From a virus, in IMG/VR virus record IMGVR_UViG_2757320713_000001, positions 1 to 32,735 of that record: DNA of 32,735 bases; one strand, given 5' to 3'. Numbering within the stretch: the first letter of the stretch is position 1; every line of letters starts with the position of its first letter. A program made the position numbers and the translations under genes. The notes under the pieces were generated by a model, which saw nothing but the letters and a program-made list of their open reading frames with translations, was not told the origin of the DNA and made no database searches. Shown piece after piece: positions 1,159-32,735 of the stretch.

Positions 1159-1584
1159 TTAGTATATTATATAATTAGCTAACTACTAATTAGTAGTTTA
1201 TAATTTAATAATTATAGTTTTATAGTTCAAGTGAAAAATATAGTTTCTTTTTTTCTTTCAATTCAATAGAAGATTCTGTATACAGTTTGGATTTATATCA
1301 GTATTTTATGGAGGAAATTGTAAGGAGATTTAATAATTTTGAGAATATATGAACTATCTAGTTATACAATATAATAATTATATAGTTATGTAGTTAGTAG
1401 TTTATAATTAATAAATTATGATCAAACCCAAAATAGGTTTTTTTACGCGATTTCACCGTTAGGAAACAATTTATCTCTGCAGTTATGAGAGAAATTGGAG
1501 AGACAGAATTTACACGTTCTCTATAGAGAGAGATGATGGAGAAGAAACGAAAAATAGAGATCTAAAAAAGGAGAGAAAAATTTA
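1141..1584 (+). repeat. Left copy of the inverted terminal repeat (part shared with the right end)
   Basis: Reverse complement of 32292-32735 at all positions checked (coordinate sum 33876); identity stops inside a TATA box. Confidence 0.95.
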
Positions 1585-1623
1585 AATATGAGTTTAGACA
1601 TATGTAAAATCAGTGAAAGAAAA

Positions 1624-1914
1624 ATGAACATGGATGAAAAGATAAATCAAATTTTGCAAAAGGCAAAAGAAGAAGGAGAAGCTTTTTTAGTTTCACTTAC
1701 TCCAGAACAATTGAGACAAAGTGGATTTGAAGAAAGTGAGGACTTTTTTAACTTTGAATTTGTGAAAATATATGTTCTATATGATGATCAATTCAAACTA
1801 AAATATGTTTTTAACAATGACCCAAGTAATTTTCTATACGAATCAAAAGAGGACTTAGGAGGATTAAAGGAGTTTATAGAAGTTGTTAAAAAATATCTAG
1901 AAGTTTCAGAATAA
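1624..1914 (+). CDS. Acidic 96-aa hypothetical early protein; anti-defence candidate
   Basis: The track start at 1588 lies at the TATA box; ATG 1624 follows GTGA SD and a class A promoter; T-tract downstream. Confidence 0.75.
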   Translation: MNMDEKINQILQKAKEEGEAFLVSLTPEQLRQSGFEESEDFFNFEFVKIYVLYDDQFKLKYVFNNDPSNFLYESKEDLGGLKEFIEVVKKYLEVSE

Positions 1915-2104
1915 TTTTTTTCTTTTTTTGTTTCAATTTTCCCAGTTATCGTTTTTTTCTCCAAATTTCTATTTTTTCATGACTATTTTCCAAAATTGTT
2001 AACATTATGAAGAATTTTTTTCAAAGTTAGGATAAAAATTCATGACTAACATTTATTGAGAGAAACATAAATATGTCATAAATATAAAAGAAAATCGATA
2101 TATT

Positions 2105-2629
2105 ATGAATATAGTTTTAAGAGAATTTGATAAAGAAAAATTTAATATAAATATCACTGCATGGTTAGATATTGATAATGATATTCAAAGTTGTTATACA
2201 AATTTTAAAGAAATTACGATAGTTACAATAATTCAAATGATTTCTGAAATTGTAGAAAAAGATGGCTGGGATTTACAATATTTTGAGAAAGATGAAGAAG
2301 AAAAATTATTTAATGCATTTATGAAAAATTCTAAAATTACAGTAAGATTAAATAAAAAGATAGATGAATTAAATTATGTTTTTGAAGAAACTATTGTTGA
2401 ATTTGATTTTCCAGAAATTGAGAAAAAGAGAATTGCGGAAATATATTTGAGTAATATACTTAATAATCTTTATTATTTTGATGAATGTATTATTTATAAT
2501 TTAGATGAAGGAGATATTAATTTAATACCAGAAGTTTTAAGTGATGAAGTTTATCAATTATTAAGTCCTGATGAAATAAAGGGAAAATTTAAGGAAAAGA
2601 TAGAGAAAATTAATACTGAAAAAGTATAG
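2105..2629 (+). CDS. Acidic 174-aa hypothetical protein
   Basis: Long ORF behind ATAAATATGTCATA (2067-2080); D/E-rich. Confidence 0.8.
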   Translation: MNIVLREFDKEKFNINITAWLDIDNDIQSCYTNFKEITIVTIIQMISEIVEKDGWDLQYFEKDEEEKLFNAFMKNSKITVRLNKKIDELNYVFEETIVEFDFPEIEKKRIAEIYLSNILNNLYYFDECIIYNLDEGDINLIPEVLSDEVYQLLSPDEIKGKFKEKIEKINTEKV

Positions 2630-2644
2630 ATGAGATGTGAAAAT

Positions 2645-2806
2645 ATGAATTTAAATACATCAATAGATCCAATATGGCTTTTAGTTATTGCTGGAATTTT
2701 TTATGAATTATTATTTATCTTTTTCTTATTAGAATTAAGACAGATAATGAAACGAATTGAAGAAGAAGAATTAGTCAGAATGTTAAAAAAGAAATATGGG
2801 GACTAA
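2645..2806 (+). CDS. 53-aa single-pass membrane protein (58 aa if started at ATG 2630)
   Basis: Hand translation MNLNTSIDPIWLLVIAGIFYELLFIFFLLELRQIMKRIEEEELVRMLKKKYGD; GTGA upstream; fills the gap after the 174-aa ORF. Confidence 0.6.
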   Translation: MNLNTSIDPIWLLVIAGIFYELLFIFFLLELRQIMKRIEEEELVRMLKKKYGD

Positions 2807-2905
2807 ATGCATTTTTATGCAAAATGTGATGTGGGCTACAAAGATAAAAGTTTAGAGAAAACTTTAAATATAAGTTTTTACATAGATTATATTGGTGAAA
2901 AAAGA

Positions 2906-3073
2906 ATGAAAGAAGTAAAAGTTGGTTCAACTACATATTACATACAAGATGAAGACGATTTAATAAGCGTAATTCATCAGTTGGCCCGTGAGGGCTATAG
3001 TATAAGTCAAATAGCTCAAGTGTTAGGAATAAGTGAACGACAAGTAAGAAAGTATTTGGAAGATTGTTGGTAA
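2906..3073 (+). CDS. 55-aa helix-turn-helix protein, SIRV1 ORF56a / SIRV2 P83-like
   Basis: YYIQDEDDLISVIHQLAREGYSISQIAQVLGISERQVRKYLE matches the recalled ORF56a sequence; GGTGA SD; the track's upstream extension spans the promoter. Confidence 0.9.
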   Translation: MKEVKVGSTTYYIQDEDDLISVIHQLAREGYSISQIAQVLGISERQVRKYLEDCW

Positions 3074-3290
3074 GTTAATTCTTTTTTTAATTTCCAATTT
3101 TTTCTTTTTCTTTTTCGTTTTTTTCATTAATTTATTTTTCTCTTATTTTTATCTAATTTTATCGATAATTTTTTTCACTTTTGACATATTATTTCTAAGT
3201 TTGAGAAATTTAGATAGCGTAAAATGAAAACGTAAAAGTTTGAAGAAAACTTTATATATAAGTTTTTACATAATAGATATTAGTGATAAA

Positions 3291-3539
3291 ATGAGTCAAG
3301 TAGAAAAGCAAAAAGTTAAATTAGGAAGAAAAGAAAAAGCGGTTTTAGATTTTTTGAAATCGTATCCTCAAGGAATATGGAAAGATGAGGTTATTAGACA
3401 TTTTTCATGGGCATCAAGATATGACTCTGTAATGAGTAAACGTTTGCACAATCTGCAGAAAAAAGGATTAATAGTGATAAAAGCAGAAGTTAATCCTTCC
3501 TCTGGAAGGTCAAAACAAAGAGTATATTTAAAACAATAA
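3291..3539 (+). CDS. 82-aa winged-helix-like DNA-binding protein
   Basis: LGRKEKAVLDFLK..GIWKDEVIRHF..KRLHNLQKKGLI..RVYL wHTH pattern; ATG 3291 after SD and class A promoter. Confidence 0.75.
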   Translation: MSQVEKQKVKLGRKEKAVLDFLKSYPQGIWKDEVIRHFSWASRYDSVMSKRLHNLQKKGLIVIKAEVNPSSGRSKQRVYLKQ

Positions 3540-3572
3540 TTTTTTTCTTTAAGCTTTTTCTTTTTTTTAGTT

Positions 3573-3764
3573 TTATTTTAATTCTCTAATTAAATCTTCT
3601 ATCTCATCTATTATATCTTCTATTTCTTCAATTTTTTGTTTTTCAAAATTATGTTCTTCATAGTTTTCAATAAGTTTCATACTTTCTTCTAGTTTTTCTT
3701 TTGCATTTTGCAATTCTTTTATTGCATCTTCAAGATCTGATATTATTTCATCATAATCTATCAT
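3573..3764 (-). CDS. 63-aa highly acidic coiled-coil protein
   Basis: 23 of 63 residues are D/E; the GTGA SD overlaps the stop of the upstream gene. Confidence 0.7.
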   Translation of the reverse strand: MIDYDEIISDLEDAIKELQNAKEKLEESMKLIENYEEHNFEKQKIEEIEDIIDEIEDLIRELK

Positions 3765-3770
3765 TTCTTA

Positions 3771-4034
3771 TCACTCTTTTATAATTTTTGAAACTTTTCC
3801 AATTGTTACATTTATTGTATTGCCAAAAGTTGAAAACCAAATTTCAAAATTTAATAGTTTATTATCAATTTCTAAATAACCAGCAATTTTATTTTTATTT
3901 TTTGTATAAAATATTATTCTTGGTTTTTCGTTAAAAATAAAAGCTTTATTTAGTAAATTTAAAATATCTTTTTCATTCATATTTTCAACTTTGTTTTTTA
4001 TTTTTTCCATTTGTTCTAAAAATTTTTCACTCAT
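3771..4034 (-). CDS. 87-aa hypothetical protein of a small rudiviral family
   Basis: ORF with own TTTATATGTCATA promoter and GTGA SD. Confidence 0.75.
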   Translation of the reverse strand: MSEKFLEQMEKIKNKVENMNEKDILNLLNKAFIFNEKPRIIFYTKNKNKIAGYLEIDNKLLNFEIWFSTFGNTINVTIGKVSKIIKE

Positions 4035-4086
4035 GTTTTCACAATTAATGTTATATTATATGACATATAAAAAGATTTTTATTTTT

Positions 4087-4704
4087 TCAGAATAAAGAGC
4101 CAAAACATTTTGCTTTAAATTCACAATTTTTACATAAATAATTATTTGCTCCTGGTATAGTTTTATAATCTTGTGATTTCATAAATTCTTTAAATTTCTT
4201 AATCCAGTCAATTGTCTTTTTCATATATTCATCTAATACTTTTTTGTCTATTTGAAATTGTCTAACTTCTTTATTTATTCTATTTAAATATATAATGTAT
4301 ACGTTATCAATTTTATAGTTTTGTTGTTGTAGTAAATAATAGTAAATTGAGACTTGGTAAAGATGATATTCCTTTATATTGAAATAGTTACTTGTGATAG
4401 TTTTAAGTTCTATAAGATCATTATTACAAATTAAGTCAATTCTTCCAGAAATTTTTATATTTTCAATTTCTCCTTTTATTTCAATTTCTGCTTTACAATT
4501 TAGTTTTTCTTGAAAATAATGTTCTACTTTTTCATGATATTGTTCTCCTAGGTCTAAAGTAATTTCATTTACGGCTTTCTCAAATTCAAATTTTCTACTA
4601 AAATAGCTTTTTCTAAAACAAATTCCAATTTCTGATGGAAATATTGTATCTTCTGGATATTTCATTTTAAAACTTTGTTTTACAAATTCTTCATAATTTG
4701 TCAT
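4087..4704 (-). CDS. Cas4-like (RecB-family) ssDNA nuclease with Fe-S cysteines, SIRV2 gp19-like
   Basis: [25 protein letters not shown] and [10 protein letters not shown] motifs; downstream of the ATPase. Confidence 0.93.
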
Positions 4705-4706
4705 TT

Positions 4707-6014
4707 TTAACCACCTAAATTACTAAATCTCATTAAGTTTATTATTCTGTTACAAATTTCTTCATTTTGTACTTTTCCAATTTGTAGATCTATATCTAGA
4801 GCTTGTAATAAAATTTGAATATCGATACTTTGCTCTTGTCTTCTAGATTCCAAATTATTGCAATTTACATAGTTATTAATACTATTTATTTTCTGTTGAA
4901 TTAATTCAATTAATGCTTTTAAAATTGATGGATATAATACTCTTGCATTTATAATTTTATCATAAGTTTTTTTAATTGCTAATTGAATAATATGAATTCT
5001 ATCTAAAATTGCTGAAGTAAATATTTGATAATTTTGTAAATAATCTTCTATATCTGGATTTACTAATTTATTAAGTGTATAAGAATATGGATTTCCAGCG
5101 TAAATAATTGGAATACATTTTTGAATAGTAGCAGATTTTGACTCTGTTCCAGCACCTCTTGTCCAAATACAATTTTCAATTCCAGTTGATAGAGTTGAAT
5201 TTATAGTATTTAGTTCTTTTGTTGAAAAACCATCTTTCCAATTTTGAATTTCATCAAATATCAATCCATTTGATAAAAATACAGCTCCATACATATTGTT
5301 TCGAGCATCGTAAACCAAATTGGCATATGTTGGAGCTTCAGTGTAATATCTAAAATTGAAAACTTCTTGTAAAATCATAAAAGTTGTAGTTTTTCCAGTT
5401 CCTCTGTTGGAGATTTCAATATAGTTAATTTGGCGTTTTGTTATTGGAGATTTGAAGAGCGGAAATAATCTCGGTAGGAAGAGGAAAATGTCATTTATTT
5501 CCATTTTTGAAGGATCATATCCAAAACTTTGAAGTAGTAAAGCATATGTTTGATATTCTTGATTTGCTAATTCAAATAATTCTTTTGCAATTTCATAATT
5601 GTTGGGTGGCTCAATTGAATAAATATCATAAATACGCCAACCTTCTATACCTTTTCTAATTTTGACAAACATGTAACTTGTAATTAAATTATAGAAATCT
5701 TCAGGATTATCAGCTATAAAATGTGGATCGAAATTTGTAGTAAAACCATTTTGAAATTTTGCTATTATTTCATCATCTTTAACTTTAAAATTAACAATTT
5801 TTGAAATAAACTTAACTTCATCATTAAATAATAAATAGCTTTGAAAATATTGTTGATCAATTCCGCGTTTATAAGCTTTTAAAATTTCAATTTTCTTTTG
5901 TTCTTCTATTTGTTTTCCAGAAAGAATTATATTAAGGACTCTTTCTGTATCTCTTGGATTATAAAAAAAAGAATGAGATTTTATTTTTTCAAGAAGTTGA
6001 TTTGAACTACTCAT
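4707..6014 (-). CDS. Lon-like AAA+ ATPase / ssDNA annealing protein, SIRV2 gp18-like
   Basis: Walker A NRGTGKTT, Walker B LIFDE; conserved operon position. Confidence 0.92.
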
Positions 6015-6039
6015 GAAAAAAAATTTATCTTATGACGTT

Positions 6040-6441
6040 TTAAAATTCATCTTCTACGTTTTTCTTTTCTCTTTTTTTCTCTTTCTTTTGCTCTTTTTGA
6101 CTTTCTGTATCTTCTTCTAATTCTAATTCTTCCTCTTGAACTGTATTATTATTCCTTGGTGTGAATTTTACATATTCGTTTAATAAGTCAGCATATTTAT
6201 TTAAGAATTCTGCAATTAATCTTAAATCTTCACTGTCATTTGCAGTTATTCCTAACTGCTTTCTGAAATTGTTTTGACTATGTATAGTCATAGAATATCT
6301 TACTTTACTATCTTGCGGAATTGCATTTAATTGAACTACCAATCTTTTTAATCCCTTAATTTTTAAAATTCTACTGGCTATTTTATTGTTTTGTTTTGCT
6401 TGACTTCCTAATTGATCTATTATTTCTTTAAGGGACGCCAT
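6040..6441 (-). CDS. ssDNA-binding protein, SIRV2 gp17-like
   Basis: 133 aa, basic N-domain and acidic low-complexity tail; first gene of the SSB-ATPase-nuclease operon. Confidence 0.85.
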   Translation of the reverse strand: MASLKEIIDQLGSQAKQNNKIASRILKIKGLKRLVVQLNAIPQDSKVRYSMTIHSQNNFRKQLGITANDSEDLRLIAEFLNKYADLLNEYVKFTPRNNNTVQEEELELEEDTESQKEQKKEKKREKKNVEDEF

Positions 6442-6541
6442 ACATACTCCCTAGTTTTATCTTTTTAATATGACATATTTATATATTTATAAAAGTACAA
6501 GCCATGATATTTAGAAGTTAAAAAAGAAGAGAAAAAAATAT

Positions 6542-6814
6542 TTAAATTACCTTGAAGAATATAGATCTTATTAATTTAGATATTTTCATGTTGTATTTAT
6601 TTGCTAATTCTACAAGTTTGTTGTAATATAATTCATCGACAGTAAAAAAAACACGCTCATCATAAATTTCACTGATTTCAATTTCTTTGAATTCTTTTTG
6701 AGAATTTAGAATTCTGTCAATTTCTTGTTTTATTGTCTCTCTTTTCTCATAAAAAAGATTTTTATACTTTGATGGTATACGTAATTCGATATACTTATTT
6801 CTTTGCTTTTTCAT
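6542..6814 (-). CDS. 90-aa protein with ribbon-helix-helix-like segments
   Basis: RVFFTVDELYYNKLVELANKYNMKISKLIRSIF is RHH-like; the N-half YIELRIP may be a second ribbon. Confidence 0.65.
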   Translation of the reverse strand: MKKQRNKYIELRIPSKYKNLFYEKRETIKQEIDRILNSQKEFKEIEISEIYDERVFFTVDELYYNKLVELANKYNMKISKLIRSIFFKVI

Positions 6815-6885
6815 AATTTTAGATATTTTCGGGCATTATATAAACATGACATATACATTTAAATGTCAGGTTTTCATTTACATGT

Positions 6886-7230
6886 GTGAACTGTGAAAAA
6901 GTTTTTAGTTATCATTTTCTTTATGTTTACACGTATTTTATTACTATTGCTACAAATTATCGTTATAATGATACATCTAAAATCTATAAAAAATTCAGAC
7001 AATATATTTATAATCATGATAAAAATTCTCATATTTATAGTGTGAAAGAATATACAACAAAATTTCATGGTTTACATTATCATGTTTTAGTTTTCACGAA
7101 TAAACGACTTGATTATTCCAGAATTCATAAGAAAATGCCTTCTCATAGTGATATAAATATTCAATTAGTTCCAAAAACAAAAAAAGATATAAAAAAAGTT
7201 TTAACTTATATGACTAAATCTAAAAAATAA
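6886..7230 (+). CDS. rep: HUH-superfamily Rep nicking endonuclease, SIRV1 ORF119-like
   Basis: YFITIAT, GLHYHVLVF (HUH) and YMTK motifs; GTG start, no in-frame ATG upstream. Confidence 0.92.
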   Translation: MNCEKVFSYHFLYVYTYFITIATNYRYNDTSKIYKKFRQYIYNHDKNSHIYSVKEYTTKFHGLHYHVLVFTNKRLDYSRIHKKMPSHSDINIQLVPKTKKDIKKVLTYMTKSKK

Positions 7231-7231
7231 A

Positions 7232-7519
7232 TTATTTAGTTTGTGACTGTTGTTGAGAACTTTGCTTTTTCTGTGCTAAAGAATTTACATCTGAAAGAGT
7301 ATCCATATTCAATAATGCATTAACGCCAAGAGTAGTGGTATCTTTAATACTTTCTATTGCACTAATTGTAGATTTTGTCATCTGATCTACTGCAATTTGG
7401 AATGATTGATTTGCTTGCTTTTGGTTGTAGAGATATACTATTTCTCCAACTACATATGAGCCTATTAGTACACCCATTAAGACAAGAAACCCTTCAATTG
7501 CATATTGTATTGTTGACAT
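7232..7519 (-). CDS. pvap: Virus-associated pyramid egress protein (PVAP; SIRV2 P98 / STIV C92 family)
   Basis: N-terminal TM helix, then DQMTKSTISAIESIKDTT.LG.NALLNMDTL.DVNSLA as in recalled P98. Confidence 0.93.
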   Translation of the reverse strand: MSTIQYAIEGFLVLMGVLIGSYVVGEIVYLYNQKQANQSFQIAVDQMTKSTISAIESIKDTTTLGVNALLNMDTLSDVNSLAQKKQSSQQQSQTK

Positions 7520-7617
7520 TTCAATTTTATTATATGCAAATTACTTAGTAATAAAGTTTATGCAAAAAATCGAAATATATAAATATGTCATAATGTTCAT
7601 TTATAAAATGAGGAAAA

Positions 7618-7779
7618 ATGATGGAGAAAGGGAAACCTGAAAGAGTTGTATTTGGAATTAATATAGATAAAGAATTGAAAACTAAATTAAAAGTTTATTG
7701 TGCTGAACATAACATTACATTAACTGAAGCCATAGAAACTGCAATTTCGGAATATTTACAAAAGAGGCAACAAAAATGA
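7618..7779 (+). CDS. svtR: SvtR-like ribbon-helix-helix regulator (53 aa; missed by track)
   Basis: Hand translation MMEKGKPERVVFGINIDKELKTKLKVYCAEHNITLTEAIETAISEYLQKRQQK matches recalled SIRV1 ORF56b. Confidence 0.9.
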   Translation: MMEKGKPERVVFGINIDKELKTKLKVYCAEHNITLTEAIETAISEYLQKRQQK

Positions 7780-7922
7780 GAGTCATAACAGTAAAAATTG
7801 ATGAAGATTTTCTAAAAGAAGTTGACAAATATGCCATGAATCATAAGTTAAACAGATCTGAAGTTGTCAGATTAGCAATTAGAGAATTTTTAAGTAATCA
7901 TGCTAATTACGAAAGTCGATAA
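7776..7922 (+). CDS. 48-aa CopG-like RHH protein (missed by track)
   Basis: MRVITVKIDEDFLKEVDKYAMNHKLNRSEVVRLAIREFL; ATGA overlap with svtR. Confidence 0.88.
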   Translation: MRVITVKIDEDFLKEVDKYAMNHKLNRSEVVRLAIREFLSNHANYESR

Positions 7923-7989
7923 AAATAAAAGAGAAAATTAAGCAAAAAATATTTTTTTATTTTCCATTTTCTGACAAATATATTTCTGG

Positions 7990-8232
7990 TCATTTTCTTC
8001 TTTTTAATCTTTCAATTTCAGCTTTAAGTTCATCAATTTCATCATAAATATCTACAAAGATATCATAAATTGCTACATATATAATTGCAAAAATTCCAGA
8101 TGCAAAAAATGTTGATATTATAACTATTGGCATATTTTTTACAAGAATTCCTAATGACATGACTATTAAAGCTAAAGACATTAAAGCTAAAAAAATTAAG
8201 AAAACTATTATTTCACGAAATTCTCTTTCCAT
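7990..8232 (-). CDS. 80-aa membrane protein, two TM helices plus C-terminal coiled coil
   Basis: Hydrophobic segments; position beside the capsid gene as in SIRVs. Confidence 0.75.
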   Translation of the reverse strand: MEREFREIIVFLIFLALMSLALIVMSLGILVKNMPIVIISTFFASGIFAIIYVAIYDIFVDIYDEIDELKAEIERLKRRK

Positions 8233-8244
8233 TTTTTCTCATTT

Positions 8245-8577
8245 TCATTTTTCGTTATCTGACGTATATATACTTTTATTAATCTGACCACATAATATTG
8301 TTAAATCAAAGAAAGGTTTGTTATATCTGTAATTTACTCTTATATATGGCGAATATCTAAAAGTCCTTTTAATGTAACTTATAATTCCATTCGCTCTTTT
8401 TATATATAAATTATGTGCCATAATCAGTCTTATTTTTAAAGTTAGCAAAGTGTCGTTATCCATGACGTGATAATAATAAATATTAGTTGGATAAAATGCG
8501 TTCAGCCAATTCAACACTTGATCGGTAAACTTTCTACATTCAATTATGATTATATCTTCCATGATTTTCATATTCAT
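8245..8577 (-). CDS. About 110-aa conserved rudiviral hypothetical protein (start uncertain)
   Basis: The track uses TTG 8586; in-frame ATGs include 8577 and 8562. Confidence 0.7.
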   Translation of the reverse strand: MNMKIMEDIIIIECRKFTDQVLNWLNAFYPTNIYYYHVMDNDTLLTLKIRLIMAHNLYIKRANGIISYIKRTFRYSPYIRVNYRYNKPFFDLTILCGQINKSIYTSDNEK

Positions 8578-8750
8578 AACTGACAATTAAATACTTTATT
8601 TTCAGTTAACATATAGTCTAATTAATAGTTATGAATTTCCCTAGTTATTACTGATATTTAATCCACAATTTCATCAACTTATATACATTATATAGTATAT
8701 ACGGCGTGAAAATTTATATTGTAGCAATTTTAAATATAAATTGACCAAAA

Positions 8751-9155
8751 ATGGCAAAAGGAAGAACACCAAGATCATATAGTCAAAGATATGCAAAATG
8801 GTCAGCTAAATTTGCATCATTTTCAAATCCTACCGTAGCATCTACTATATTATCAAATGTTTCGCCAGTTGCACAACAAAATTTCCAAACTCATGTTCCA
8901 AAATTTACTAGCGTAAATGAACAAGTTTCCAGCGTATTGTCAGAATATGGAATTACTGGTCCTAACAGAGCCATTTACCAAGGCTTTGGTTTGAAGGTAG
9001 CTAGAGCTTTAAATAGACTTGGCGGTGGACCGGCGTTAGTAAATATGATCAACGGTTTGAAAGCTTATTATATTTCAGCATTTAATGCTAATCCAACTGT
9101 TTTGGATGCAGTCACCAACATTATAACTGGTTCACCAACTGGTTATGTAAGCTAA
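8751..9155 (+). CDS. mcp: Major capsid protein (134 aa)
   Basis: MAKGRTPRSYSQRYAKWSAKF..GITGPNRAIYQGFGLKVARALNR is the rudiviral MCP. Confidence 0.98.
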   Translation: MAKGRTPRSYSQRYAKWSAKFASFSNPTVASTILSNVSPVAQQNFQTHVPKFTSVNEQVSSVLSEYGITGPNRAIYQGFGLKVARALNRLGGGPALVNMINGLKAYYISAFNANPTVLDAVTNIITGSPTGYVS

Positions 9156-9266
9156 AAAATTATAGAATATCTTTTAAGCTATTTTATTTTTTTATTTTTT
9201 CTTTTTCAGAACTTTAGTTCAAATTTAAAATTTAAAAAAATTTGTTTTTAACTTTTTAACTTGAAA
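9156..9266. terminator. T-rich terminator region between convergent genes
   Basis: TTTTATTTTTTTATTTTTCTTTTT after the mcp stop; A-tract on the opposite strand. Confidence 0.55.
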
Positions 9267-9437
9267 TTAATCATTATCATCAATTTCTGTTTCTATATAC
9301 TCATAATTTGTTTTACTTATTCTTTTACAATCACTAATTTTTACACCGGGATGATGTTTTTTCAAATGTGTAATCATAGCTTTTCTAGTTCTCGTTAAAT
9401 GTTGACAAATTGGACACTCAAATAAAAAGATACCCAT
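9267..9437 (-). CDS. 56-aa C2H2 zinc-finger protein
   Basis: FECPICQHLTRTRKAMITHLKKHH; ATG 9437 preferred over the track extension that overlaps the GT gene. Confidence 0.85.
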   Translation of the reverse strand: MGIFLFECPICQHLTRTRKAMITHLKKHHPGVKISDCKRISKTNYEYIETEIDDND

Positions 9438-9473
9438 GATATTTTTTAGTGTCATGACAAATAAAAAATTCAC

Positions 9474-10505: not shown

Positions 10506-10568
10506 CTTCAAGAGCTGGTTAATCGAAAAATTTATATGTTTTGAATGACATATAATTATAGTGAGACT

Positions 10569-23344: not shown

Positions 23345-23366
23345 AAATTTGACCTCATAATGCTCT

Positions 23367-23849: not shown

Positions 23850-23851
23850 GA

Positions 23852-24655: not shown

Positions 24656-24786
24656 ATGTTTATATACTTAAATTGTAGTAAAAATAAACTCATAGCTTAT
24701 ATATCATATTATGTATATAGCTTGATCTAATTGATCTTATAACGAATTAGCAATATTTTAATTTGTCATGAACTTGAGAAATAATT

Positions 24787-25392
24787 ATGAAAATCTTTAC
24801 TTTTGTTGGATTTACAAAACATCTGGAAGAACTAGATTTTGATTATGTTGTAGTAGATAGAACTTTTAATGATTTAACTCCCCAGTTAATCGATAAATAT
24901 TCAGATAAAATAATATGGAATGAGACAAATAGTAATGTAAGATGGATCAGAATTGCTAAACAATTACTTAAAATTCTAGAAGTAGTTAAAGATTTAGATG
25001 ATGATATATTTGCGATAATTGATAGTGATCTAATTGTTCCAAAAATTAGAGAAATTGATCCACAAAATAAAATTTTAACGCTTTGTTATTGGCTTTATTA
25101 CGAGTGGGCTAATGAAATAAGACCTTTCTGCTCTGGAACAAATTACATATTTAATAAAAAACATATCGTAATTTTAGAAACTGCAATAAATGTTTATTTA
25201 GAAAAAGAATATTATAAAGAATTTCCAGTGGATATATTTCTACATGACCATATTTTGCATATAAATATATTAAAATTAGGAACTATACATTATGTAAAAA
25301 CTCCTGAAGGTGAGAAAAAAATGGAATTTACATTTAACGATATAAATCAAGTATTTAAACATATTCCAGAATTTGTTTTAATATCTTGGTGA
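24787..25392 (+). CDS. GT-A-like glycosyltransferase (201 aa)
   Basis: FAIIDSDLIV DxD motif; tandem with a second GT. Confidence 0.8.
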   Translation: MKIFTFVGFTKHLEELDFDYVVVDRTFNDLTPQLIDKYSDKIIWNETNSNVRWIRIAKQLLKILEVVKDLDDDIFAIIDSDLIVPKIREIDPQNKILTLCYWLYYEWANEIRPFCSGTNYIFNKKHIVILETAINVYLEKEYYKEFPVDIFLHDHILHINILKLGTIHYVKTPEGEKKMEFTFNDINQVFKHIPEFVLISW

Positions 25393-25399
25393 TATTTAA

Positions 25400-26464
25400 T
25401 TGGAAAAACCGATTTATTACGTTTACCCTCAGCACCATGACGTTTCATTCAAATTTGTGGCTAAAGAACATATTAAAATGTTGAGAGAAAAATATACAGT
25501 TTACGAAATTCCAGCATTATCTTTCTATCAATTTACACCTTTCAAATATCCAATTTCTATAATTCACCCATTCTTCTATAGCATATGGCACTGGGGAAAA
25601 GTTGAATTTTCTTTCTTTGAACAGTATAGAAGCCGAGTTTCAGCAATTGTAGGAGTTGAAGTAGCTGACAGTGATAGAATTTCAGAAAAATTCATAGATT
25701 ATGCTAATAATTATGCTGATAGATTAATTGGAAATTCAGAATGGACTATAAACGCTTTTAAAAATTCTGGACTAAAAATTCCAATTTTCAAAGTTGTTCA
25801 TAATTTCAATTCTAGATTATTGGCAAAAGATAATGAGTTAAAAGTTGATGAACAAGTTAAATATATTGAAAAAGTTAAAAATGAGAAGAAAATTAAATTG
25901 ATATTTATTTCACTTTGGCATTCTGATTTTAGAAAAGGAGCGGATTTATTTCATAATATTGCTAAAGAAATACAAAAAGAAAGAGACGACATTTATTTTT
26001 TAGTTAAATCTGGAGGGCCAAGGACAGATTTTCAAGATTTGAGAATGTTTAATTTGACTGGAAATACAGATTTTGACAATATTGTTAAAATGTATAGAAT
26101 TTCTGACTTATATTTGTTGCCTTCAAGAGGCGGAAGTTTTGAACTTAATGGACTAGAGGCATTCATTTCCAAAATTCCGACAATTGCCACAAAAGGTGGT
26201 GCATGGGAAGAATATTTTCCTAACAATTTAAAAGATTTATTAGTAGATTCTTGTAGATTTCCAGATGTTCTTTGGAATAATCCAATTCATATTGGACAAG
26301 GAGTAGAAATGTGCATAAATAACGCAATAGAAAAAATCTTAGAAGTTCTAGATAAACTAGATGATTATAAAGCAAAAATTGAAGAAAACTATAACTTTTG
26401 GCTAGAAAACTTTAGTTATGAAACTGTAAAAAAACAATTATTTAACGCTTTGACTTTTACTTAA
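25400..26464 (+). CDS. GT-B glycosyltransferase, SIRV ORF356-like, TTG start
   Basis: PSRGGSFELNGLEAF..IPTIAT; GGTGA SD before the TTG. Confidence 0.92.
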   Translation: MEKPIYYVYPQHHDVSFKFVAKEHIKMLREKYTVYEIPALSFYQFTPFKYPISIIHPFFYSIWHWGKVEFSFFEQYRSRVSAIVGVEVADSDRISEKFIDYANNYADRLIGNSEWTINAFKNSGLKIPIFKVVHNFNSRLLAKDNELKVDEQVKYIEKVKNEKKIKLIFISLWHSDFRKGADLFHNIAKEIQKERDDIYFLVKSGGPRTDFQDLRMFNLTGNTDFDNIVKMYRISDLYLLPSRGGSFELNGLEAFISKIPTIATKGGAWEEYFPNNLKDLLVDSCRFPDVLWNNPIHIGQGVEMCINNAIEKILEVLDKLDDYKAKIEENYNFWLENFSYETVKKQLFNALTFT

Positions 26465-26809
26465 AAAATCATAAATTTTTAGTAATGCTTCAATATTTTC
26501 TTCTCTCTTTAACTTCTTTATCTCTCTTATTATTTCATCATAAATATTATTAATTTTAATCAGTTCTAAAACTTCCTTAATTAGTAAAATTGAAAATCTA
26601 TGAGATTGTTGAACTATAACATAAATTTTTCTTGCTAATTTTTCAGCATCAAATTTATCATATTCAATTGAAAGTTCAACATCTGAATATTTTGCGGTAA
26701 CATTATTTTCATAAAGAGTCAAAAAAAGTTTATATTTGTCTTCTACAATTACTTCAGCTTGATTATCATTTATCTTAACTATCACGTTTTCTCTTAACTT
26801 AAACTCCAT
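26438..26809 (-). CDS. About 123-aa hypothetical protein
   Basis: Exact ATAAATATGTCATA promoter at 26833-26846; 27-bp convergent overlap with the GT. Confidence 0.75.
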   Translation of the reverse strand: MEFKLRENVIVKINDNQAEVIVEDKYKLFLTLYENNVTAKYSDVELSIEYDKFDAEKLARKIYVIVQQSHRFSILLIKEVLELIKINNIYDEIIREIKKLKREENIEALLKIYDFLSKSQSVK

Positions 26810-26898
26810 GTCTATCAATATAATATATATTTTATGACATATTTATTTCTTTAAATTTCGAGTAAATCTTAAATTGGTCATAATGTAGGAGCTATGAT

Positions 26899-28089
26899 AT
26901 GGAATTTAAAAGAGAAAGTTCCGGAATAATAAAAAGCTTTTCAGCATTAGATATTTTTTCAATTAATCTTTTGTATATGGGAATTTTAAGCGGAATAAGC
27001 TATCCATTATTTGTCTCTGAAATGATGAAAAATGTAAACTTATTATTTGCAATTTTAATAGGCTCTGCTTTTGGAATTCCACTTTTAGTAATGTACTATT
27101 TGCTAACTAAGAAAATACCGTTAAATGGAGGAGATTACGCTTATATTAGATCTTCATTTTCTCCAAAGTTTTACACAATTTTCGGAATTTCACTATGGCT
27201 AATTTACGTATTTTCAGCTCCAGTTTTATCTGATCTTGTATTGTTAAATTTCAATATTCCAGTAATTGATAAGTTTTTAATTTCAGAATTATTATTTGCT
27301 ATTGCTTTACTTAGCATAGTTAAAAAGTCAATTTATGCATATATTGTAGACGGAATTGCAATTTTACAAATAATTGTTTCTTTAATTCTGCCAATTTCAA
27401 GTTTCCATTTTCAAGCCCCAAATTTCATATTATCAAACACTTTACTTTCAGCTTTACTATTTGATTTGTCTATGTTTCTCTTCATAAATGCGATTAGTTA
27501 TATAGCTGGCGAAACAAAAAATGTAGACAAATCCATGAAAATTGGATATTTCTTAAGTTACTTTGTAGTTACAATATTAGCGTTATTAGACAGTTATTCA
27601 AATTTAAATATCTTATTTCTGTTAATGCCGATATGGTTTATGAGTTATATTTTTGTTACTTCTATGATTCAAAGTAGATTAATTCAAAATTTAGCATTTG
27701 ATAAAATCTTACCTGAAAAATTTGCAAAAATAACGCCTAATGCTTTACTGTTAATCTTTATCGCTGATACAATTGCAAACGTTTTAGAAAATCTATTTAA
27801 TTTCTCAATTTCATTTGGATTTGATGGATTATTATTCATTTTCTGGAACTTTATAATTGTTAGTTTTGCATTTCTAAAGCTAACAAACAAAAAACTATTA
27901 TTTTCAATAGTAATGATTAGCCTAATTTTACAGATCTTCTTATTCTTTTATCTAGGCATATCAAATTCAATATTCTATAATTTTGTAATTCAAGGAAATG
28001 TTCTATTTGCAATATTAAGAATATTGCTAATGCCAATTTTAGGAGGAATTATTTACTTGTTAAGGAGAAAAATTATAAACGCTGAATAA
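26899..28089 (+). CDS. APC-superfamily permease-like polytopic membrane protein (396 aa)
   Basis: FKRESSGIIKSFSALD N-terminus as in Sulfolobales amino-acid permeases; GGDYAYI, AGETKN; about 11-12 hydrophobic segments. Confidence 0.85.
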   Translation: MEFKRESSGIIKSFSALDIFSINLLYMGILSGISYPLFVSEMMKNVNLLFAILIGSAFGIPLLVMYYLLTKKIPLNGGDYAYIRSSFSPKFYTIFGISLWLIYVFSAPVLSDLVLLNFNIPVIDKFLISELLFAIALLSIVKKSIYAYIVDGIAILQIIVSLILPISSFHFQAPNFILSNTLLSALLFDLSMFLFINAISYIAGETKNVDKSMKIGYFLSYFVVTILALLDSYSNLNILFLLMPIWFMSYIFVTSMIQSRLIQNLAFDKILPEKFAKITPNALLLIFIADTIANVLENLFNFSISFGFDGLLFIFWNFIIVSFAFLKLTNKKLLFSIVMISLILQIFLFFYLGISNSIFYNFVIQGNVLFAILRILLMPILGGIIYLLRRKIINAE

Positions 28090-28091
28090 AG

Positions 28092-28994
28092 ATGAAATTG
28101 GTATTTGGCATTTCTAGTTCAAGAAGTTATTTTTTTAAAACTAATTTTCCAATTTTAGTTAATCAACTAAGATTTAAAAGAAAAACATGGAGAAATGAAA
28201 CTTGGGTTGATAGTGGCGGATTTCAAATTATAATGCATAACTTAAAAATTTCTGTAAATGATGTCTTGCAAAAGTATAAAAGTGTTAATGCTTACGCATT
28301 TTTTTCTCTCGATATTCCTAGCGTTTTTGCACCTCTTGACAAACGGAATTTTGAATATTTTGAGTATCTCTACACAAAAATTGAATGGATAGAAAAAATT
28401 ATACCAGTTTTACATATTTATCCACTTCAAGATTTGGATAAAGCTATTGATTTTTACAAACAATACAGTTATTATTTTGCAATTGGCGGAATAATGACTT
28501 CTAGCAAATTAAGAGTTTTACAATATACATTTCCATGGATTTATTACCTAAAAAGAAAAGTATCTTATCTTCACGTTCTCGGTATATCATCTCCATATTT
28601 TTTACAAATTTTTAATAATATACAAAGCATGGATACCGCATTTTGTTCAATAATTTCAGCATTTAAAGAAATAATTTGGGTTAATGGATCTAGGAGATAT
28701 ATTGGAAATATGAAAACAAAAAGGGAAAGATATAAAATTACAAAAGAAGAAAAAGAACAATTGTTTGAATTTTTAGATAAGCATAATTTCCCATTTGAAT
28801 ATGACTTAAATAATAGGCATATTTTAGAACTAATAAACGCTTATATTCTATTGTATCATAATTGGAAAATTAAGAATAAGTATACTGAATATGCAGAAAA
28901 ACTTAGAAAAATGGGATTAGACAGTTTGACAAGCGAGTTAATTAGAAATTATAAAATTGCAAATGAAATATTAAAACAGAAAAGAGAAAAATAG
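28092..28994 (+). CDS. tRNA-guanine transglycosylase-like (TGT/DpdA-related) protein (300 aa)
   Basis: WVDSGGFQ, FSLDIP, IIPVLH, FAIGG, LHVLG and SMDT motifs of the TGT barrel; 2 bp after the permease. Confidence 0.85.
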   Translation: MKLVFGISSSRSYFFKTNFPILVNQLRFKRKTWRNETWVDSGGFQIIMHNLKISVNDVLQKYKSVNAYAFFSLDIPSVFAPLDKRNFEYFEYLYTKIEWIEKIIPVLHIYPLQDLDKAIDFYKQYSYYFAIGGIMTSSKLRVLQYTFPWIYYLKRKVSYLHVLGISSPYFLQIFNNIQSMDTAFCSIISAFKEIIWVNGSRRYIGNMKTKRERYKITKEEKEQLFEFLDKHNFPFEYDLNNRHILELINAYILLYHNWKIKNKYTEYAEKLRKMGLDSLTSELIRNYKIANEILKQKREK

Positions 28995-29008
28995 AAGATA
29001 AAAAAATA

Positions 29009-29566
29009 TTAACTTAATAATTTGTCTAATTGCTCATCATAAATTACTTCAACCTTTCCATCTTTAATCACTATTTTACCTGACAAATTCTCGCCGAAAT
29101 ATTGTATCAAATATCCGTATCCAGCAGTTCTAACTCTACCGCTTATGCTATACTGAATTTCTACATCTCCATTACAATAAAGATGTTTAACCTCTCCGAG
29201 ACTTCCTCTAGGACTTCTCAATATTTCAAAATCTTCACATTCACCGCTAAGCACTTTGAAATAAACACCGCCTCTATAACCTGATGGTAATTCAATAACA
29301 TATAATGTATTTCCCGGTTCAAACTTTATGATTGGAGTTCCCTTTTCTGTTACAACAATTTTTGCATTTGCTAATTTTACCGTAAACTCATTAACTCTAT
29401 CAAATTCTATAAAACTTCCATTTTCACCGCTTTCTACAAATCTTCCACTGAAATATATAACTCTTCCTCTAGCTCTATCACCAATTTCAGTTATATCCAA
29501 TGCCTTGTCCTCAAAAAATGGATATTTCTCATCTTTTAAACTAACTTGAACTTTTAACTTATTCAT
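29009..29566 (-). CDS. 185-aa beta-rich hypothetical early protein
   Basis: Class A promoter and GGTGA SD; Gly/Arg motifs SGYRGG and RSPRGSLG. Confidence 0.8.
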   Translation of the reverse strand: MNKLKVQVSLKDEKYPFFEDKALDITEIGDRARGRVIYFSGRFVESGENGSFIEFDRVNEFTVKLANAKIVVTEKGTPIIKFEPGNTLYVIELPSGYRGGVYFKVLSGECEDFEILRSPRGSLGEVKHLYCNGDVEIQYSISGRVRTAGYGYLIQYFGENLSGKIVIKDGKVEVIYDEQLDKLLS

Positions 29567-29825
29567 TCTCTTATCACCAATATCTATTATGTAAATCTTT
29601 GTATTTAAAGTTATCTCTTAATTTTTACGTTTATATCTTACGCTATTTTTATCATTAAATTTCTTACTGTATAATTCCTCTTGATTTTAAAATATTATCC
29701 CAAAATTGAGAAAAAATAAGCATGAAGATAGATGATAAAGAGTAGAAAAATAAAATTAATAAGTTAAAAATTATAGATTAACAAAAAGAAAAAAATTATA
29801 GATAAAAAACGATTAATTTAAAACT

Positions 29826-30548
29826 TTAATCAACTTTATGACTTTTAGGTCTTGGATGCGTTATTAAATAATATTTATTTCCACTTAGCATAACTGAATT
29901 TTCGCCATGGTCTGCTGATTTCATAACAAATGTTGTAGAATTTTGAAGATATATCAAAAATGCAATACCAGGTGTTGAAAATAAATCAGTTGCTAATACA
30001 GGATTTGAAAATTGTATCTCATGATTATAAATTGTCAAACTGTTTACATGATTGAGACTAAGATTTAATTCGCTATTTGGTGGTGGAACTTCATAAATTT
30101 CCAAATTGCCTTGATTAAAAACTAAAGAAAATTGATATAATTGTCCTTTAATAAATATATCGAAAAAGTCTATTGCATAATTGGTATAATTAATAAGTAA
30201 TTTTTTAGAATTAAGATTTGAAAGTTCTATTTGTTTTAATATAAAGTTTTTCATATCCTCTAAACTTCTTGTAATTTTATTTCTTCTATAAACTGAAATT
30301 ATTGATGGAGCTGGCGTATAATATATGCCTTTAGTTTCATCTAATTGATTACCATCATACTTAAAACAACCGTTAAACGTTAATCCTGACCTAGAAATAT
30401 ATTTAGAACAATTTACATAATGATTTGAAATTAACGAAATTTTTGTAACTTGACCATTTGAATGTTTCAACATAAAAACGATTGGCAAATATTTTATTTG
30501 TTTTAAAATTTTAACTTCATACTTTTTTTGGTCTTCAACTTGGGACAT
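29826..30548 (-). CDS. acrIIIB1: AcrIIIB1 homologue (type III-B anti-CRISPR)
   Basis: YVNCSKYISRSGLTFNGC, GIYYTPAPSIIS, NYAIDFFDIFIKGQLYQF, IYNHEIQFSNPV, TPG, SADH and THPRPK align with recalled SIRV2 gp48; GGGTGA SD before ATG 30548. Confidence 0.85.
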   Translation of the reverse strand: MSQVEDQKKYEVKILKQIKYLPIVFMLKHSNGQVTKISLISNHYVNCSKYISRSGLTFNGCFKYDGNQLDETKGIYYTPAPSIISVYRRNKITRSLEDMKNFILKQIELSNLNSKKLLINYTNYAIDFFDIFIKGQLYQFSLVFNQGNLEIYEVPPPNSELNLSLNHVNSLTIYNHEIQFSNPVLATDLFSTPGIAFLIYLQNSTTFVMKSADHGENSVMLSGNKYYLITHPRPKSHKVD

Positions 30549-30577
30549 ACGACTTATCACCCGTAAATGAAAATATG

Positions 30578-30666
30578 TTATATGACAAATTTATAACTTT
30601 CTTTATTTTTCGATTTACAAACTTTCTAAAATGTTAGTATTACTATTTGAAACGTGAGAAAAATTA
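30578..30666 (-). repeat. 89-bp upstream module, second copy at 31346-31434
   Basis: Ungapped hand alignment, about 74/89 identical, including TATA-TTGTCATATAA and CTAAAATGTTAGTATTA. Confidence 0.85.
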
Positions 30667-30727
30667 TGCATGGAGAAAGAAAACAAAAAACAAAAAAATA
30701 AAAAATAAAGAATACGAAAGAAAAAAA

Positions 30728-31042
30728 TTAGTATATATTCCAAAGTAATAAAGCAATTAGCTTTAAAATTTCTTCACGCGTACCTTCAATTACTTTTTCA
30801 TTGTTTACATCTTTGTAAACTTTATAAAGCCTTGCAATTTTTTGTAGTATCTTAACAAAATCAATATCTTCTGGATTTAAATAAGTAAAGCTAATTTCAT
30901 TTTTCGTATCATTTATTCTTATGTTCAATTTGTTATATTCTATAGACTTTCCCTTTACTTCAGCTAACTGAATTAAAAAATTAACATTAACTTGTTGTTC
31001 CAATACCTCTTTCATTTGACTTTGACTTTTTTCTTGACTCAT
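30728..31042 (-). CDS. 104-aa hypothetical early protein
   Basis: Class A promoter, GGTGA SD before MSQEK. Confidence 0.78.
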   Translation of the reverse strand: MSQEKSQSQMKEVLEQQVNVNFLIQLAEVKGKSIEYNKLNIRINDTKNEISFTYLNPEDIDFVKILQKIARLYKVYKDVNNEKVIEGTREEILKLIALLLWNIY

Positions 31043-31129
31043 CTTTTTCACCATTATCTATTATCTCTAAACTTATATTTAAATTTTTCTCTATCTTTTC
31101 ATGTCTTCATTTTTCGACTTATAATTATG

Positions 31130-31318
31130 TTAATTTTCATGATCATTATACTTTCTTTCATAAATGACTTTCCCATGAATTTTTAATACACCAGTTCTAT
31201 CAAATTCAGCTAACGCATTCAAATACTCCTTGTAAGCTTTGATAATATAATCTATTCTATTATGCATTCTTTCTAGAATTTTTTTCTGCTCAGCAGTTAA
31301 TTTATGTACTCTTGTCAT
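31130..31318 (-). CDS. 62-aa small protein resembling a conserved ligamenviral family
   Basis: KLTAEQKKIL..IDYIIKAYKEYLNALAEFDRTGVLKIHGKVIY; own GTC-type promoter. Confidence 0.75.
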   Translation of the reverse strand: MTRVHKLTAEQKKILERMHNRIDYIIKAYKEYLNALAEFDRTGVLKIHGKVIYERKYNDHEN

Positions 31319-31527
31319 TTTTTATCATCTACAAATCATCATACGTTATATGACAAATTTAAAAGTATCTTTAATTTTAGATTTACGAATTTCCTAAAAT
31401 GTTAGTATTATTATCCCAAACATGAAAAAAAATATTGATAAAAATAGAAGATAATAAACATAAAAATAGGAAGTTAAAATATAAAATTATAAAAATAAAA
31501 TAAAATTAAGGAAAAAAGTTAAAAAAA

Positions 31528-31755
31528 TTATTGAATTTGTTGTTGTGAATTAAAACGAGAAACGAGAGAAGAAAATAATTTTTGTGCATATTTTTGATCA
31601 AATCCATGATAATAAAAAAATCTATTTTTTTCTGAAATTTTATAAACCGCAAATCTTGACTTTGAACAACAATTACATTTAGCTAAAGCAAAATTGTTCA
31701 TTTGTTGAACTATTTCAAAGTCATGAAATTTTACATCAATAATTTGAATCTTCAT
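31528..31755 (-). CDS. 75-aa hypothetical early protein
   Basis: Class A promoter GAGAAAACTTTAAATATAAGTTT; CNCC motif. Confidence 0.7.
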   Translation of the reverse strand: MKIQIIDVKFHDFEIVQQMNNFALAKCNCCSKSRFAVYKISEKNRFFYYHGFDQKYAQKLFSSLVSRFNSQQQIQ

Positions 31756-31916
31756 AACTCTCAATTATATATATGTCTAAACTTATATTTAAAGTTTTCT
31801 CTAAACGTTTATCTCTCTATCTATCTACTTTTTTATCTTATATTATCAATTTTTATCTCAAAATAGAAAATATAAAATAGAAGATAATAAAAATAAAAAT
31901 AAAAAAAACAATTAAC

Positions 31917-32255
31917 TTAATATAGACTTAATGACTTCCAGCCGGTAAAGAAATTGAAAACGTATACTATTTGATGTTTTTGGCTCTGTGAATTATATTT
32001 AATTCTTTCTTCAACCAGCAATATTACCGTATCACTCTTGGGAATAACAGCATATTCAAATTCTCTTGTATTATCATCAGCATCATTAGTATTCATCAAT
32101 ATCAATTCATATTCGCCATAAATCTGTTTGATTTTTGCGCTCCCATCTTTCCCTTTATACTCTTTAATTGTCAAAAAATATTTGGCCTCATTTCTTCCCT
32201 CTTTTATCGACTGTTCTATTAATTGATTGATTTGTTCATCGGTTAATTTTTTCAT
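31917..32255 (-). CDS. 112-aa hypothetical early protein
   Basis: Promoter partly supplied by the ITR, GGTGA SD; C-terminal VIPK..VYVF..GWK pattern recalled from small ligamenviral proteins. Confidence 0.78.
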   Translation of the reverse strand: MKKLTDEQINQLIEQSIKEGRNEAKYFLTIKEYKGKDGSAKIKQIYGEYELILMNTNDADDNTREFEYAVIPKSDTVILLVEERIKYNSQSQKHQIVYVFNFFTGWKSLSLY

Positions 32256-32291
32256 CTTTTCACCAACATATTATATGTAAATTCTCCTTTA

Positions 32292-32735
32292 TAAATTTTT
32301 CTCTCCTTTTTTAGATCTCTATTTTTCGTTTCTTCTCCATCATCTCTCTCTATAGAGAACGTGTAAATTCTGTCTCTCCAATTTCTCTCATAACTGCAGA
32401 GATAAATTGTTTCCTAACGGTGAAATCGCGTAAAAAAACCTATTTTGGGTTTGATCATAATTTATTAATTATAAACTACTAACTACATAACTATATAATT
32501 ATTATATTGTATAACTAGATAGTTCATATATTCTCAAAATTATTAAATCTCCTTACAATTTCCTCCATAAAATACTGATATAAATCCAAACTGTATACAG
32601 AATCTTCTATTGAATTGAAAGAAAAAAAGAAACTATATTTTTCACTTGAACTATAAAACTATAATTATTAAATTATAAACTACTAATTAGTAGTTAGCTA
32701 ATTATATAATATACTAACTATGTAGTTATATAATT
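32292..32735 (-). repeat. Right inverted terminal repeat, truncated
   Basis: Matches 1141-1584; the window ends mid-repeat. Confidence 0.95.

Follow-up and report, generated by a model that had tools for sequence, protein, structure and literature searches.

The 32,735-nt stretch of DNA analysed here, called the window throughout (IMG/VR record IMGVR_UViG_2757320713_000001, positions 1 to 32,735), is the linear genome of a rudivirus with ~25% G+C, and it carries near both ends a repeated promoter and ribosome-binding module that stands ahead of small single genes. The core of the window shares 87-90% identity with SIRV4 to SIRV9 and SIRV11, the rod-shaped viruses of Sulfolobus islandicus from Yellowstone, and ~75% with the Icelandic SIRV1. 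The aca8 homologue is its fourth gene, the AcrIIIB1 homologue corresponds to gp45, and the ADG.17 family of anti-defence genes (ADGs) is present; because gene order and family content match the SIRV10 locus tags in the literature, the window is most likely a Yellowstone Usarudivirus, either SIRV10 or a near twin. The three copies of the module at 1.5-3.3 kb are on the + strand and the four at 29.6-32.3 kb on the - strand, so that the genes behind them read inwards. These genes, which encode among others a helix-turn-helix (HTH) and a winged-helix (wHTH) protein, are the following:

1624-1914, + strand: 96-aa gene (g96), ADG.07 / phrog_15508; 59% identity to SIRV11 gp50; T7 run at +1
2906-3073, + strand: aca8 homologue, 55-aa HTH protein (g55); 57% identity to SIRV2 gp01/gp54; phrog_7067; HTH_23, E=6e-8
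3291-3539, + strand: 82-aa winged-helix gene (g82), MarR/Lrs14-like, ADG.02; 72% identity to SIRV11 gp02
29009-29566, - strand: 185-aa gene (g185), ADG.06; 100% identical to SIRV9 gp51
30728-31042, - strand: 104-aa gene (g104), ADG.01, phrog_4746; 64% identity to SIRV11 gp01
31528-31755, - strand: 75-aa gene (g75), ADG.08; 100% identical to SIRV8 gp04
31917-32255, - strand: 112-aa gene (g112), ADG.05; 70% identity to SIRV5 gp01

The modules that precede them are listed next, with scores from the position weight matrix (PWM) described below; BRE is the transcription factor B recognition element and ITR the inverted terminal repeat.

1544-1623, + strand: module 1, 40.2 bits; upstream element, BRE, TATA box at 1581-1588, proximal block and AGTGA, up to the ATG
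2826-2905, + strand: module 2, 40.9 bits; inside a longer 88-aa open reading frame (ORF) at 2807-3073, upstream of aca8
3214-3290, + strand: module 3, 35.6 bits; upstream CGTAAAA-N6-CGTAAAA element; 36/45 match with module 4
29567-29646, - strand: module 4, 31.8 bits; absent in SIRV4, 5, 7 and 11
31043-31120, - strand: module 5, 35.7 bits; clearest rearrangement junction
31756-31830, - strand: module 6, 41.6 bits; TGAGAG before the ATG
32256-32332, - strand: module 7, 33.1 bits; its BRE half is the right-arm ITR copy

All seven modules follow one plan. An upstream element of ~25 nt, extending as far as about -35 relative to the TATA box, takes the form CGTAA-N8-CGTAAAA in copies 3 and 4; copies 1, 5 and 7 have related versions of it. 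The BRE, rich in purines (GAGAAAAM, AAGAAAAC or GAGATAAC across all seven copies), lies directly 5' of the TATA box (TTTAWATA), which reads TTTAAATA or TTTATATA in six copies and TTTATAAA in copy 7. After the TATA box comes a conserved 13-nt proximal block, AAGTTTWKACATA, then a variable 8-12 nt, and then a Shine-Dalgarno sequence, GGTGA in four copies and AGTGA in two, in place of which copy 6 has TGAGAG. The distance from TATA start to ATG is 38-43 nt in every copy, and the BRE and TATA box are the most information-rich columns of the alignment. An earlier interpretation made from the letters of the window (the sequence-only reading) had proposed these seven sites, and all were recovered at the coordinates and on the strands it gave. 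The sites of its consensus are real, but the module is longer than it had stated, with an upstream element reaching about -35 from the TATA box. The TGGTGA leader it described holds for the six copies that have a GGTGA-like Shine-Dalgarno 6-9 nt ahead of the ATG, but not for copy 6 (31756-31802) with its TGAGAG. Its comparison of the modules at 3214-3258 and 29646-29602, before the 82-aa and 185-aa genes, is exact both upstream (36 of 45 positions) and in the leader (24 of 25 positions, TTTACATAATAGATATT[A/G]GTGATAA). A palindrome flanking the TATA box, AAACTT-N7-AAGTTT, was considered as an operator and rejected: it is perfect in copies 2, 3 and 6, and in the other copies and in relatives its arms, judged by eye, show no co-variation.

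The PWM was built from the seven window sites as a gapless 36-nt block aligned on the TATA box (12 nt on the BRE side, the TATA box and 16 nt beyond it). The seven sites score between 31.8 and 41.6 bits and the eighth-best position in the window 11.3 bits, against a background in which the best score per random Markov-1 window (n=200) averages 11.8 and reaches a maximum of 24.4. Under leave-one-out scoring every site was beaten only by the other six (all ranks <=7), and the 23-mer core alone finds five sites at <=3 mismatches where 0.02 are expected. The motif scan that had been suggested as a check thus places seven sites far above background and finds no eighth; the module family in the window consists of exactly seven copies.

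Runs of T5 to T8 lie within 25 nt after the stop codon of all seven module-driven genes. Because each gene ends in an oligo-T tract, the archaeal termination signal, the seven genes are monocistronic units, which bears out the description of them as single-gene cassettes. The oligo-T terminator is absent after the 58-aa (g58) and 62-aa (g62) genes located just upstream of copies 2 and 5 (2807-2850 and 31096-31129). Since these two genes lack a terminator, transcripts from a second promoter class (class 2, described below) may run on into both aca8 and the 104-aa gene and provide a second, differently regulated source of their mRNA.

The module has a close counterpart in published work. In SIRV2 a single regulatory sequence with a strong BRE/TATA promoter is common to 11 of the 13 immediate-early genes, and the motif-bearing early genes include aca8 (gp01/gp54), acrID1 (gp03) and acrIIIB1 (gp48) (Bhoobalan-Chitty et al. 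2024, Nat Commun 15:3699, PMC11065993). The SIRV2 aca8 promoter lies inside an over-long annotated ORF whose real product is 55 aa, and the HTH protein Aca8 was proposed as the probable repressor of the early set (PMC11065993). This framework was applied to 17 aca8-carrying rudiviruses, SIRV10 being named among them, and the prevalence of the motif for aca8 was 1, meaning every aca8-bearing virus (PMC11065993). Supplementary Data 1 of that study gives for SIRV10 gp01 as ADG.07, gp04 as Aca8, gp05 as ADG.02 (MarR-like), gp44 as ADG.06, gp45 as AcrIIIB1, gp46 as ADG.01, gp47 as ADG.17 (viral antitoxin), gp48 as ADG.08 and gp49 as ADG.05, nine ADGs in all (PMC11065993). Window proteins were assigned to these families by tblastn to the listed cluster members at their annotated coordinates, an assignment that is independent of the identity of the window with SIRV10.

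When the window PWM was run on SIRV2, 4, 5, 7, 8, 9, 11 and V60, it returned 4-9 sites in each. Across the genomes the sites precede 54 ORFs of 14 families, with aca8 among them in nine of nine genomes, and the SIRV2 matches fall before gp01/gp54 (aca8), gp02/gp53 and gp03 (AcrID1 family), gp05, gp08 and gp47 (AcrIA3), genes that PMC11065993 describes as immediate-early and carrying the motif. As the window PWM recovers SIRV2 early promoters and the families behind the modules match the listed clusters, the module is a member of the described regulon. The likeness to the Aca8-associated early regulatory sequence extends past the core promoter: both have TTTAWATA after a purine-rich BRE, both stand ahead of small single genes of the same protein families at the two genome ends, and both precede aca8 with the promoter within an over-long ORF (PMC11065993). 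Nothing essential differs between them; AcrIIIB1 and ADG.17 are counted as ADGs in that study and have no motif match here.

We consider it very likely that the seven repeats are copies of the virus-specific early regulatory sequence found in rudiviruses with aca8. The module anatomy, the specificity of the seven copies, the conservation ahead of 14 families in nine genomes and the homology to SIRV2 promoters are seen directly in these genomes, and the early timing is taken from the literature on the homologous SIRV2 promoters (PMC11065993). The original proposal of a promoter with a ribosome-binding site agrees with this published and partly experimental framework, which is also the work behind the statement of the sequence-only reading that shared strong early promoters stand before anti-defence genes in archaeal viruses. 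The observation is therefore real but already known, having been published for this clade and very probably for this genome, and it adds no new principle because use of the sequence as an anti-defence marker has also been published.

If the repeats act as this early regulatory sequence, the host TATA-binding protein (TBP), transcription factor B (TFB) and RNA polymerase (RNAP) would fire all copies immediately on entry of the genome into the cell. With the centre of Sulfolobus TATA boxes near -26/-27, the transcription start site (TSS) would lie ~30 nt downstream of the TATA start, on the G or pyrimidine-purine step of TTGGTGA, and the leaders would be 8-13 nt long and begin with the Shine-Dalgarno sequence. 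Aca8 made from copy 2 would probably then repress the whole set, its own gene included. The products of the set would be the regulator Aca8, one MarR/Lrs14-like wHTH protein, and five small proteins of virus-only families that are predicted to serve anti-defence.

With the ATG behind each module taken as the start, the ORF lengths first reported (96, 55, 82, 185, 104, 75 and 112 aa) are correct. The seven proteins are likewise mutually unrelated, with no significant BLASTP pair (best E=0.037 over 16 aa); the HTH assignment of the 55-aa protein stands on its HTH_23 match in Pfam, and that of the 82-aa protein on a winged-helix model. The predicted fold of the latter is a three-helix winged helix (predicted local distance difference test score, pLDDT, 83.5), with Foldseek matches at TMq 0.65-0.70 to MepR and MexR of the MarR family and to the Sulfolobus Lrs14-type AbfR2. 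Given this structural likeness, the 82-aa protein could be another regulator of the virus itself, or it could repress a host defence promoter in the manner of AcrIA3 (SIRV2 gp47), a wHTH protein that acts on a host promoter. Homology to AcrIA3 was considered for both the 82-aa and the 104-aa proteins and rejected (BLASTP E=13 and E=0.84, respectively), neither being detectably related, and the common ground of g82 and AcrIA3 is the general wHTH fold class only. The five other proteins (96, 185, 104, 75 and 112 aa) have no Pfam domain and fall only into PHROG families without a function. In tblastn of the seven proteins against SIRV2, Aca8 was the sole match, and tblastn against SIRV2, Pfam and BLASTP of g82 and g104 against AcrIA3 found no homology of the module-driven proteins to the validated AcrID1, AcrIIIB1, AcrIIIB2, AcrIII-1, AcrIA3 or Phd-like viral antitoxin. 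The AlphaFold model of the 185-aa protein is all-beta and confident (pLDDT 92.9; predicted TM-score, pTM, 0.89), and the 45 cluster representatives of its ADG.06 family share at least 58% identity. In the ESM Atlas there was no usable match for this protein and none for the 112-aa protein.

Two neighbouring genes in the right arm have relatives of validated function:

29826-30548, - strand: AcrIIIB1 homologue (g244); 39% identity, E=1e-42, to SIRV2 gp48; class-2 promoter at 30561-30666
31130-31318, - strand: 62-aa Phd-like gene (g62), ADG.17, viral antitoxin family; 90% identity to SIRV9 gp03; class-2 promoter at 31319-31434

The function of the ADG.17 or Phd-like viral antitoxin family was tested with SMV1 gp44. 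Both genes have a class-2 promoter, TTTTAAATTTGTCATATAAC, which lies in 175-nt paralogous spacers (30554-30728 and 31322-31496) together with a conserved ACTAACATTT and an upstream CGTAAATC element; a weaker class-2 copy is found at 2030-2104, before the 174-aa gene (g174). The best score of the class-2 promoters with the seven-copy PWM is below background. There is no terminator between g62 and module 5. The AcrIIIB1 homologue can be read as 240 aa from ATG 30548, as in the SIRV9 annotation, or as 244 aa from GTG 30560; the GTG sits within the gene's own GGGTGA Shine-Dalgarno, and the start is probably ATG 30548. In SIRV4, 5, 7 and 11 (e.g. L004 29473-30760), the homologue of the 185-aa gene begins 10 nt after the AcrIIIB1 homologue with no module between them, which makes co-transcription of the pair probable. 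The two genes are set apart in the window, SIRV9 and V60 by a 260-nt spacer that contains module 4.

Several points weigh against the interpretation of the module as an early anti-defence sequence. The start sites and early timing are those expected by homology to the SIRV2 promoters, and the anti-defence function of the five ADG proteins is a prediction. The supplements of PMC11065993 contain no electrophoretic mobility shift assay (EMSA) for Aca8 on the regulatory sequence. The two genes with validated relatives are not among the seven and use the other promoter class; because of this the motif is not necessary for anti-defence genes, and at present it is not sufficient either. A Foldseek search of the PDB with the 185-aa model gave only noise at TM<0.3, leaving a confident fold without a known relative. 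Two of the seven products are DNA-binding regulators (Aca8 and the MarR-like wHTH protein) and not obvious effectors, which limits the anti-defence interpretation. The proposal of a candidate anti-defence set is thus partly upheld, in that all seven families are listed as ADG or Aca8 for SIRV10, but it is limited by the two regulators and by the different promoter class of the genes with validated relatives.

The same facts bear on what else the copies could be. They might be strong generic Sulfolobus promoters that look alike through the constraint on BRE and TATA and through duplication of cassettes, with no dedicated common regulator. The concentration of information in the BRE and TATA columns fits such an account, as does the multiplication of AcrID1-family genes by duplication in SIRV2, and regulation by Aca8 is so far a proposal (PMC11065993). 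We nevertheless find it very improbable: the similarity extends 16 nt past the TATA box and ~35 nt upstream, no other promoter in the 32.7-kb genome, class 2 included, rises above the PWM background, whole-cassette duplication cannot account for copies that precede seven unrelated proteins, and the module stands before aca8 in each of the nine genomes as well as in all the aca8-bearing viruses of PMC11065993. A different question is whether the immediate-early regulon serves mostly host take-over or viral gene regulation, through transcription factors and replication helpers, rather than inhibition of defence. That two of seven products are DNA-binding proteins, that none of the other five resembles a known anti-CRISPR (Acr) protein, and that only one of six motif-bearing SIFV2 genes scored when screened for inhibition of subtype I-A all lean this way. 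The families are, however, variable and dispensable across close relatives and adjoin the AcrIIIB1 and Phd-like genes, a pattern typical of counter-defence and not of core functions in take-over, and the same promoter class drives AcrID1 and AcrIA3 in SIRV2; we regard a regulon devoted mainly to take-over as unlikely.

The relation of the modules to the terminal repeats adds a further aspect.

1141-1584, partner 32292-32735: inner part of the ITR, 444 nt with zero mismatches

The perfect identity of the ITR stops at 1584, the fourth base of the TATA box of module 1, so that the repeat contains the BRE half of module 1 in the left arm and that of module 7 in its right-arm copy. For the other eight genomes, the innermost alignment of the repeat stops within a range of -25 to +40 nt relative to the TATA start of a module. 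The inner end of the ITR is accordingly in or beside a module of this class (class 1) in nine of nine rudivirus genomes, and the genes behind it differ between the arms. A repeat boundary within a module would be a natural consequence if cassettes were the unit of difference between arms.

The sequence-only reading had also raised the idea that the repeats are homology anchors. In its strong form, this holds that the modules are mainly portable homology patches which, together with T-rich terminators, allow non-homologous cassettes to be joined, moved from arm to arm and exchanged among co-infecting viruses by ordinary homologous recombination; their promoter function would be real, but their uniformity would be kept for the sake of genome plasticity. 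The order of the cassettes varies among relatives: g112-g75-g62 lies in the right arm of the window and in the left arm of SIRV8 and 9, the g96-g174-g58-aca8 block lies in the left arm of the window and in the right arm of SIRV4, 5, 7 and 11, and g104 shows the reverse. In module 5, at 31076-31117, the blocks of homology to the seven relatives all break off; its upstream neighbour g62 is joined to g104 in the window and to a g96-like gene in SIRV8 and 9, and over the 60 nt upstream of its TATA box it is almost the same as the SIRV8/9 site in front of the g96-like gene. Behind the ITR-type BRE half AGGAGAGAAAAATTTA stand at least five different downstream halves and genes, and the inner ends of the ITR at TATA+4 in the window and near TATA starts in the eight other genomes speak for the same idea. 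DNA contigs from four hot-spring and aquatic metagenome runs, compared with the right arm, have joints at or beside modules (32324>29640 in three runs, 31800>29623 and 31046>32308), weak support given flanks of 23-34 nt on the shorter side.

These junctions are not specific to the modules, however. Among 44 unique ends of long homology blocks, 13 are coding (66% expected) and 31 non-coding, an enrichment in non-coding DNA as a whole, and of the latter 8 fall in class-1 modules against an expected 22% (p=0.38), so that the mapping of breakpoints, which had been proposed as a check and does yield the module 5 junction in seven relatives, leads us to reject a specific enrichment in modules within non-coding DNA. 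The remaining non-coding ends lie in T-rich terminator spacers and class-2 promoters, which hold about as many junctions. Tracts shared with SIRV9 with few or no mismatches (2054-2613, 3278-4037, 28860-29819 and 31276-32115, with flanks 10-25% diverged) indicate recent recombination between SIRV lineages of the Norris Geyser Basin. The tracts have eight boundaries, of which a module contains one (3278), coding sequence about four, and a stop codon coincides with one. Tract ends occur within the TGT gene, g62 and g112. The tract with g185 carries module 4 in its interior, not at its edge. BLAST alignments moreover run into shared sequence by construction, which makes a junction within a module partly an artefact of the method, and the conservation of modules between Icelandic and Yellowstone viruses is more simply explained by selection on promoter and operator function. 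We therefore doubt that the modules exist mainly as homology patches. The anchor claim stands to the extent that some junctions and the inner end of the ITR lie in modules, but not as enrichment over other non-coding DNA, and the SIRV9 tracts mostly end inside coding sequence. General homologous recombination acts across the arms, and non-homologous cassettes join only in shared non-coding DNA, modules included.

A broader possibility, which we put forward tentatively, is that the arms are a recombinase-free cassette exchange system in which accessory genes lie between early-promoter modules and T-rich terminator spacers. The modules and spacers would then be the only homology between otherwise unrelated cassettes, recombination within a genome or between co-infecting viruses would reassort genes that each keep a working early promoter, and the inner end of the ITR in a module in nine genomes would be its footprint. 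The literature searched, PMC11065993 included, contains no statement of such an exchange or of an ITR boundary in a module. The arrangement resembles integron cassettes in that short single genes, unrelated to one another and dependent on a promoter, form an array flanked by a repeated sequence and vary in order between relatives. Integron cassettes, in contrast, are promoterless and moved by an integrase at attC, whereas each cassette here has its own promoter. No recombinase gene is evident among the arm genes, a family scan having been confined to the arms. Because junctions occur in modules and terminators and also within coding sequence, an integron-like system is less likely and general homologous recombination is favoured.

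Two other systems offer comparison. Phage acr-aca operons of the Aca1 and Aca2 type also place a very strong early promoter ahead of small, fast-evolving anti-defence genes, and in both cases the regulon includes a small HTH protein presumed to silence the promoter once the first burst is over. The phage genes, however, share one operon and promoter, whereas here an archaeal BRE/TATA promoter occurs seven times before monocistronic genes in both arms; Aca8 gives only generic HTH matches in Pfam and, as far as Pfam shows, is not homologous to the bacterial Aca families. Poxvirus and asfarvirus genomes are linear with hairpin ends, ITRs, a conserved core and, towards each end, variable early genes for host interaction. 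Their gene content, too, is redistributed among arms and strains, but the viruses, hosts and promoter machinery are unrelated and the likeness is one of architecture only.

In practical terms, the module is a label for the immediate-early and probably counter-defence gene set of Sulfolobus rod-shaped viruses, and it marks the five predicted ADG proteins and the MarR-like regulator as first candidates for screening against CRISPR subtypes I-A, I-D and III-B and toxin-antitoxin systems. Slightly beyond the literature are the end of the ITR in or beside such a promoter in every genome examined and the reshuffling of cassettes between arms with junctions in shared non-coding sequences. If true, cassette reshuffling would explain how the anti-defence repertoire is renewed without a dedicated recombinase.

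The two ends of the record differ outside the repeat. The right end is without the outer ~1140 nt that would correspond to the left end, and at the left end positions 1-594 form a palindrome of 297+297 nt with 97% complementarity, which is best read as a covalently closed hairpin terminus that was read through by the assembler.

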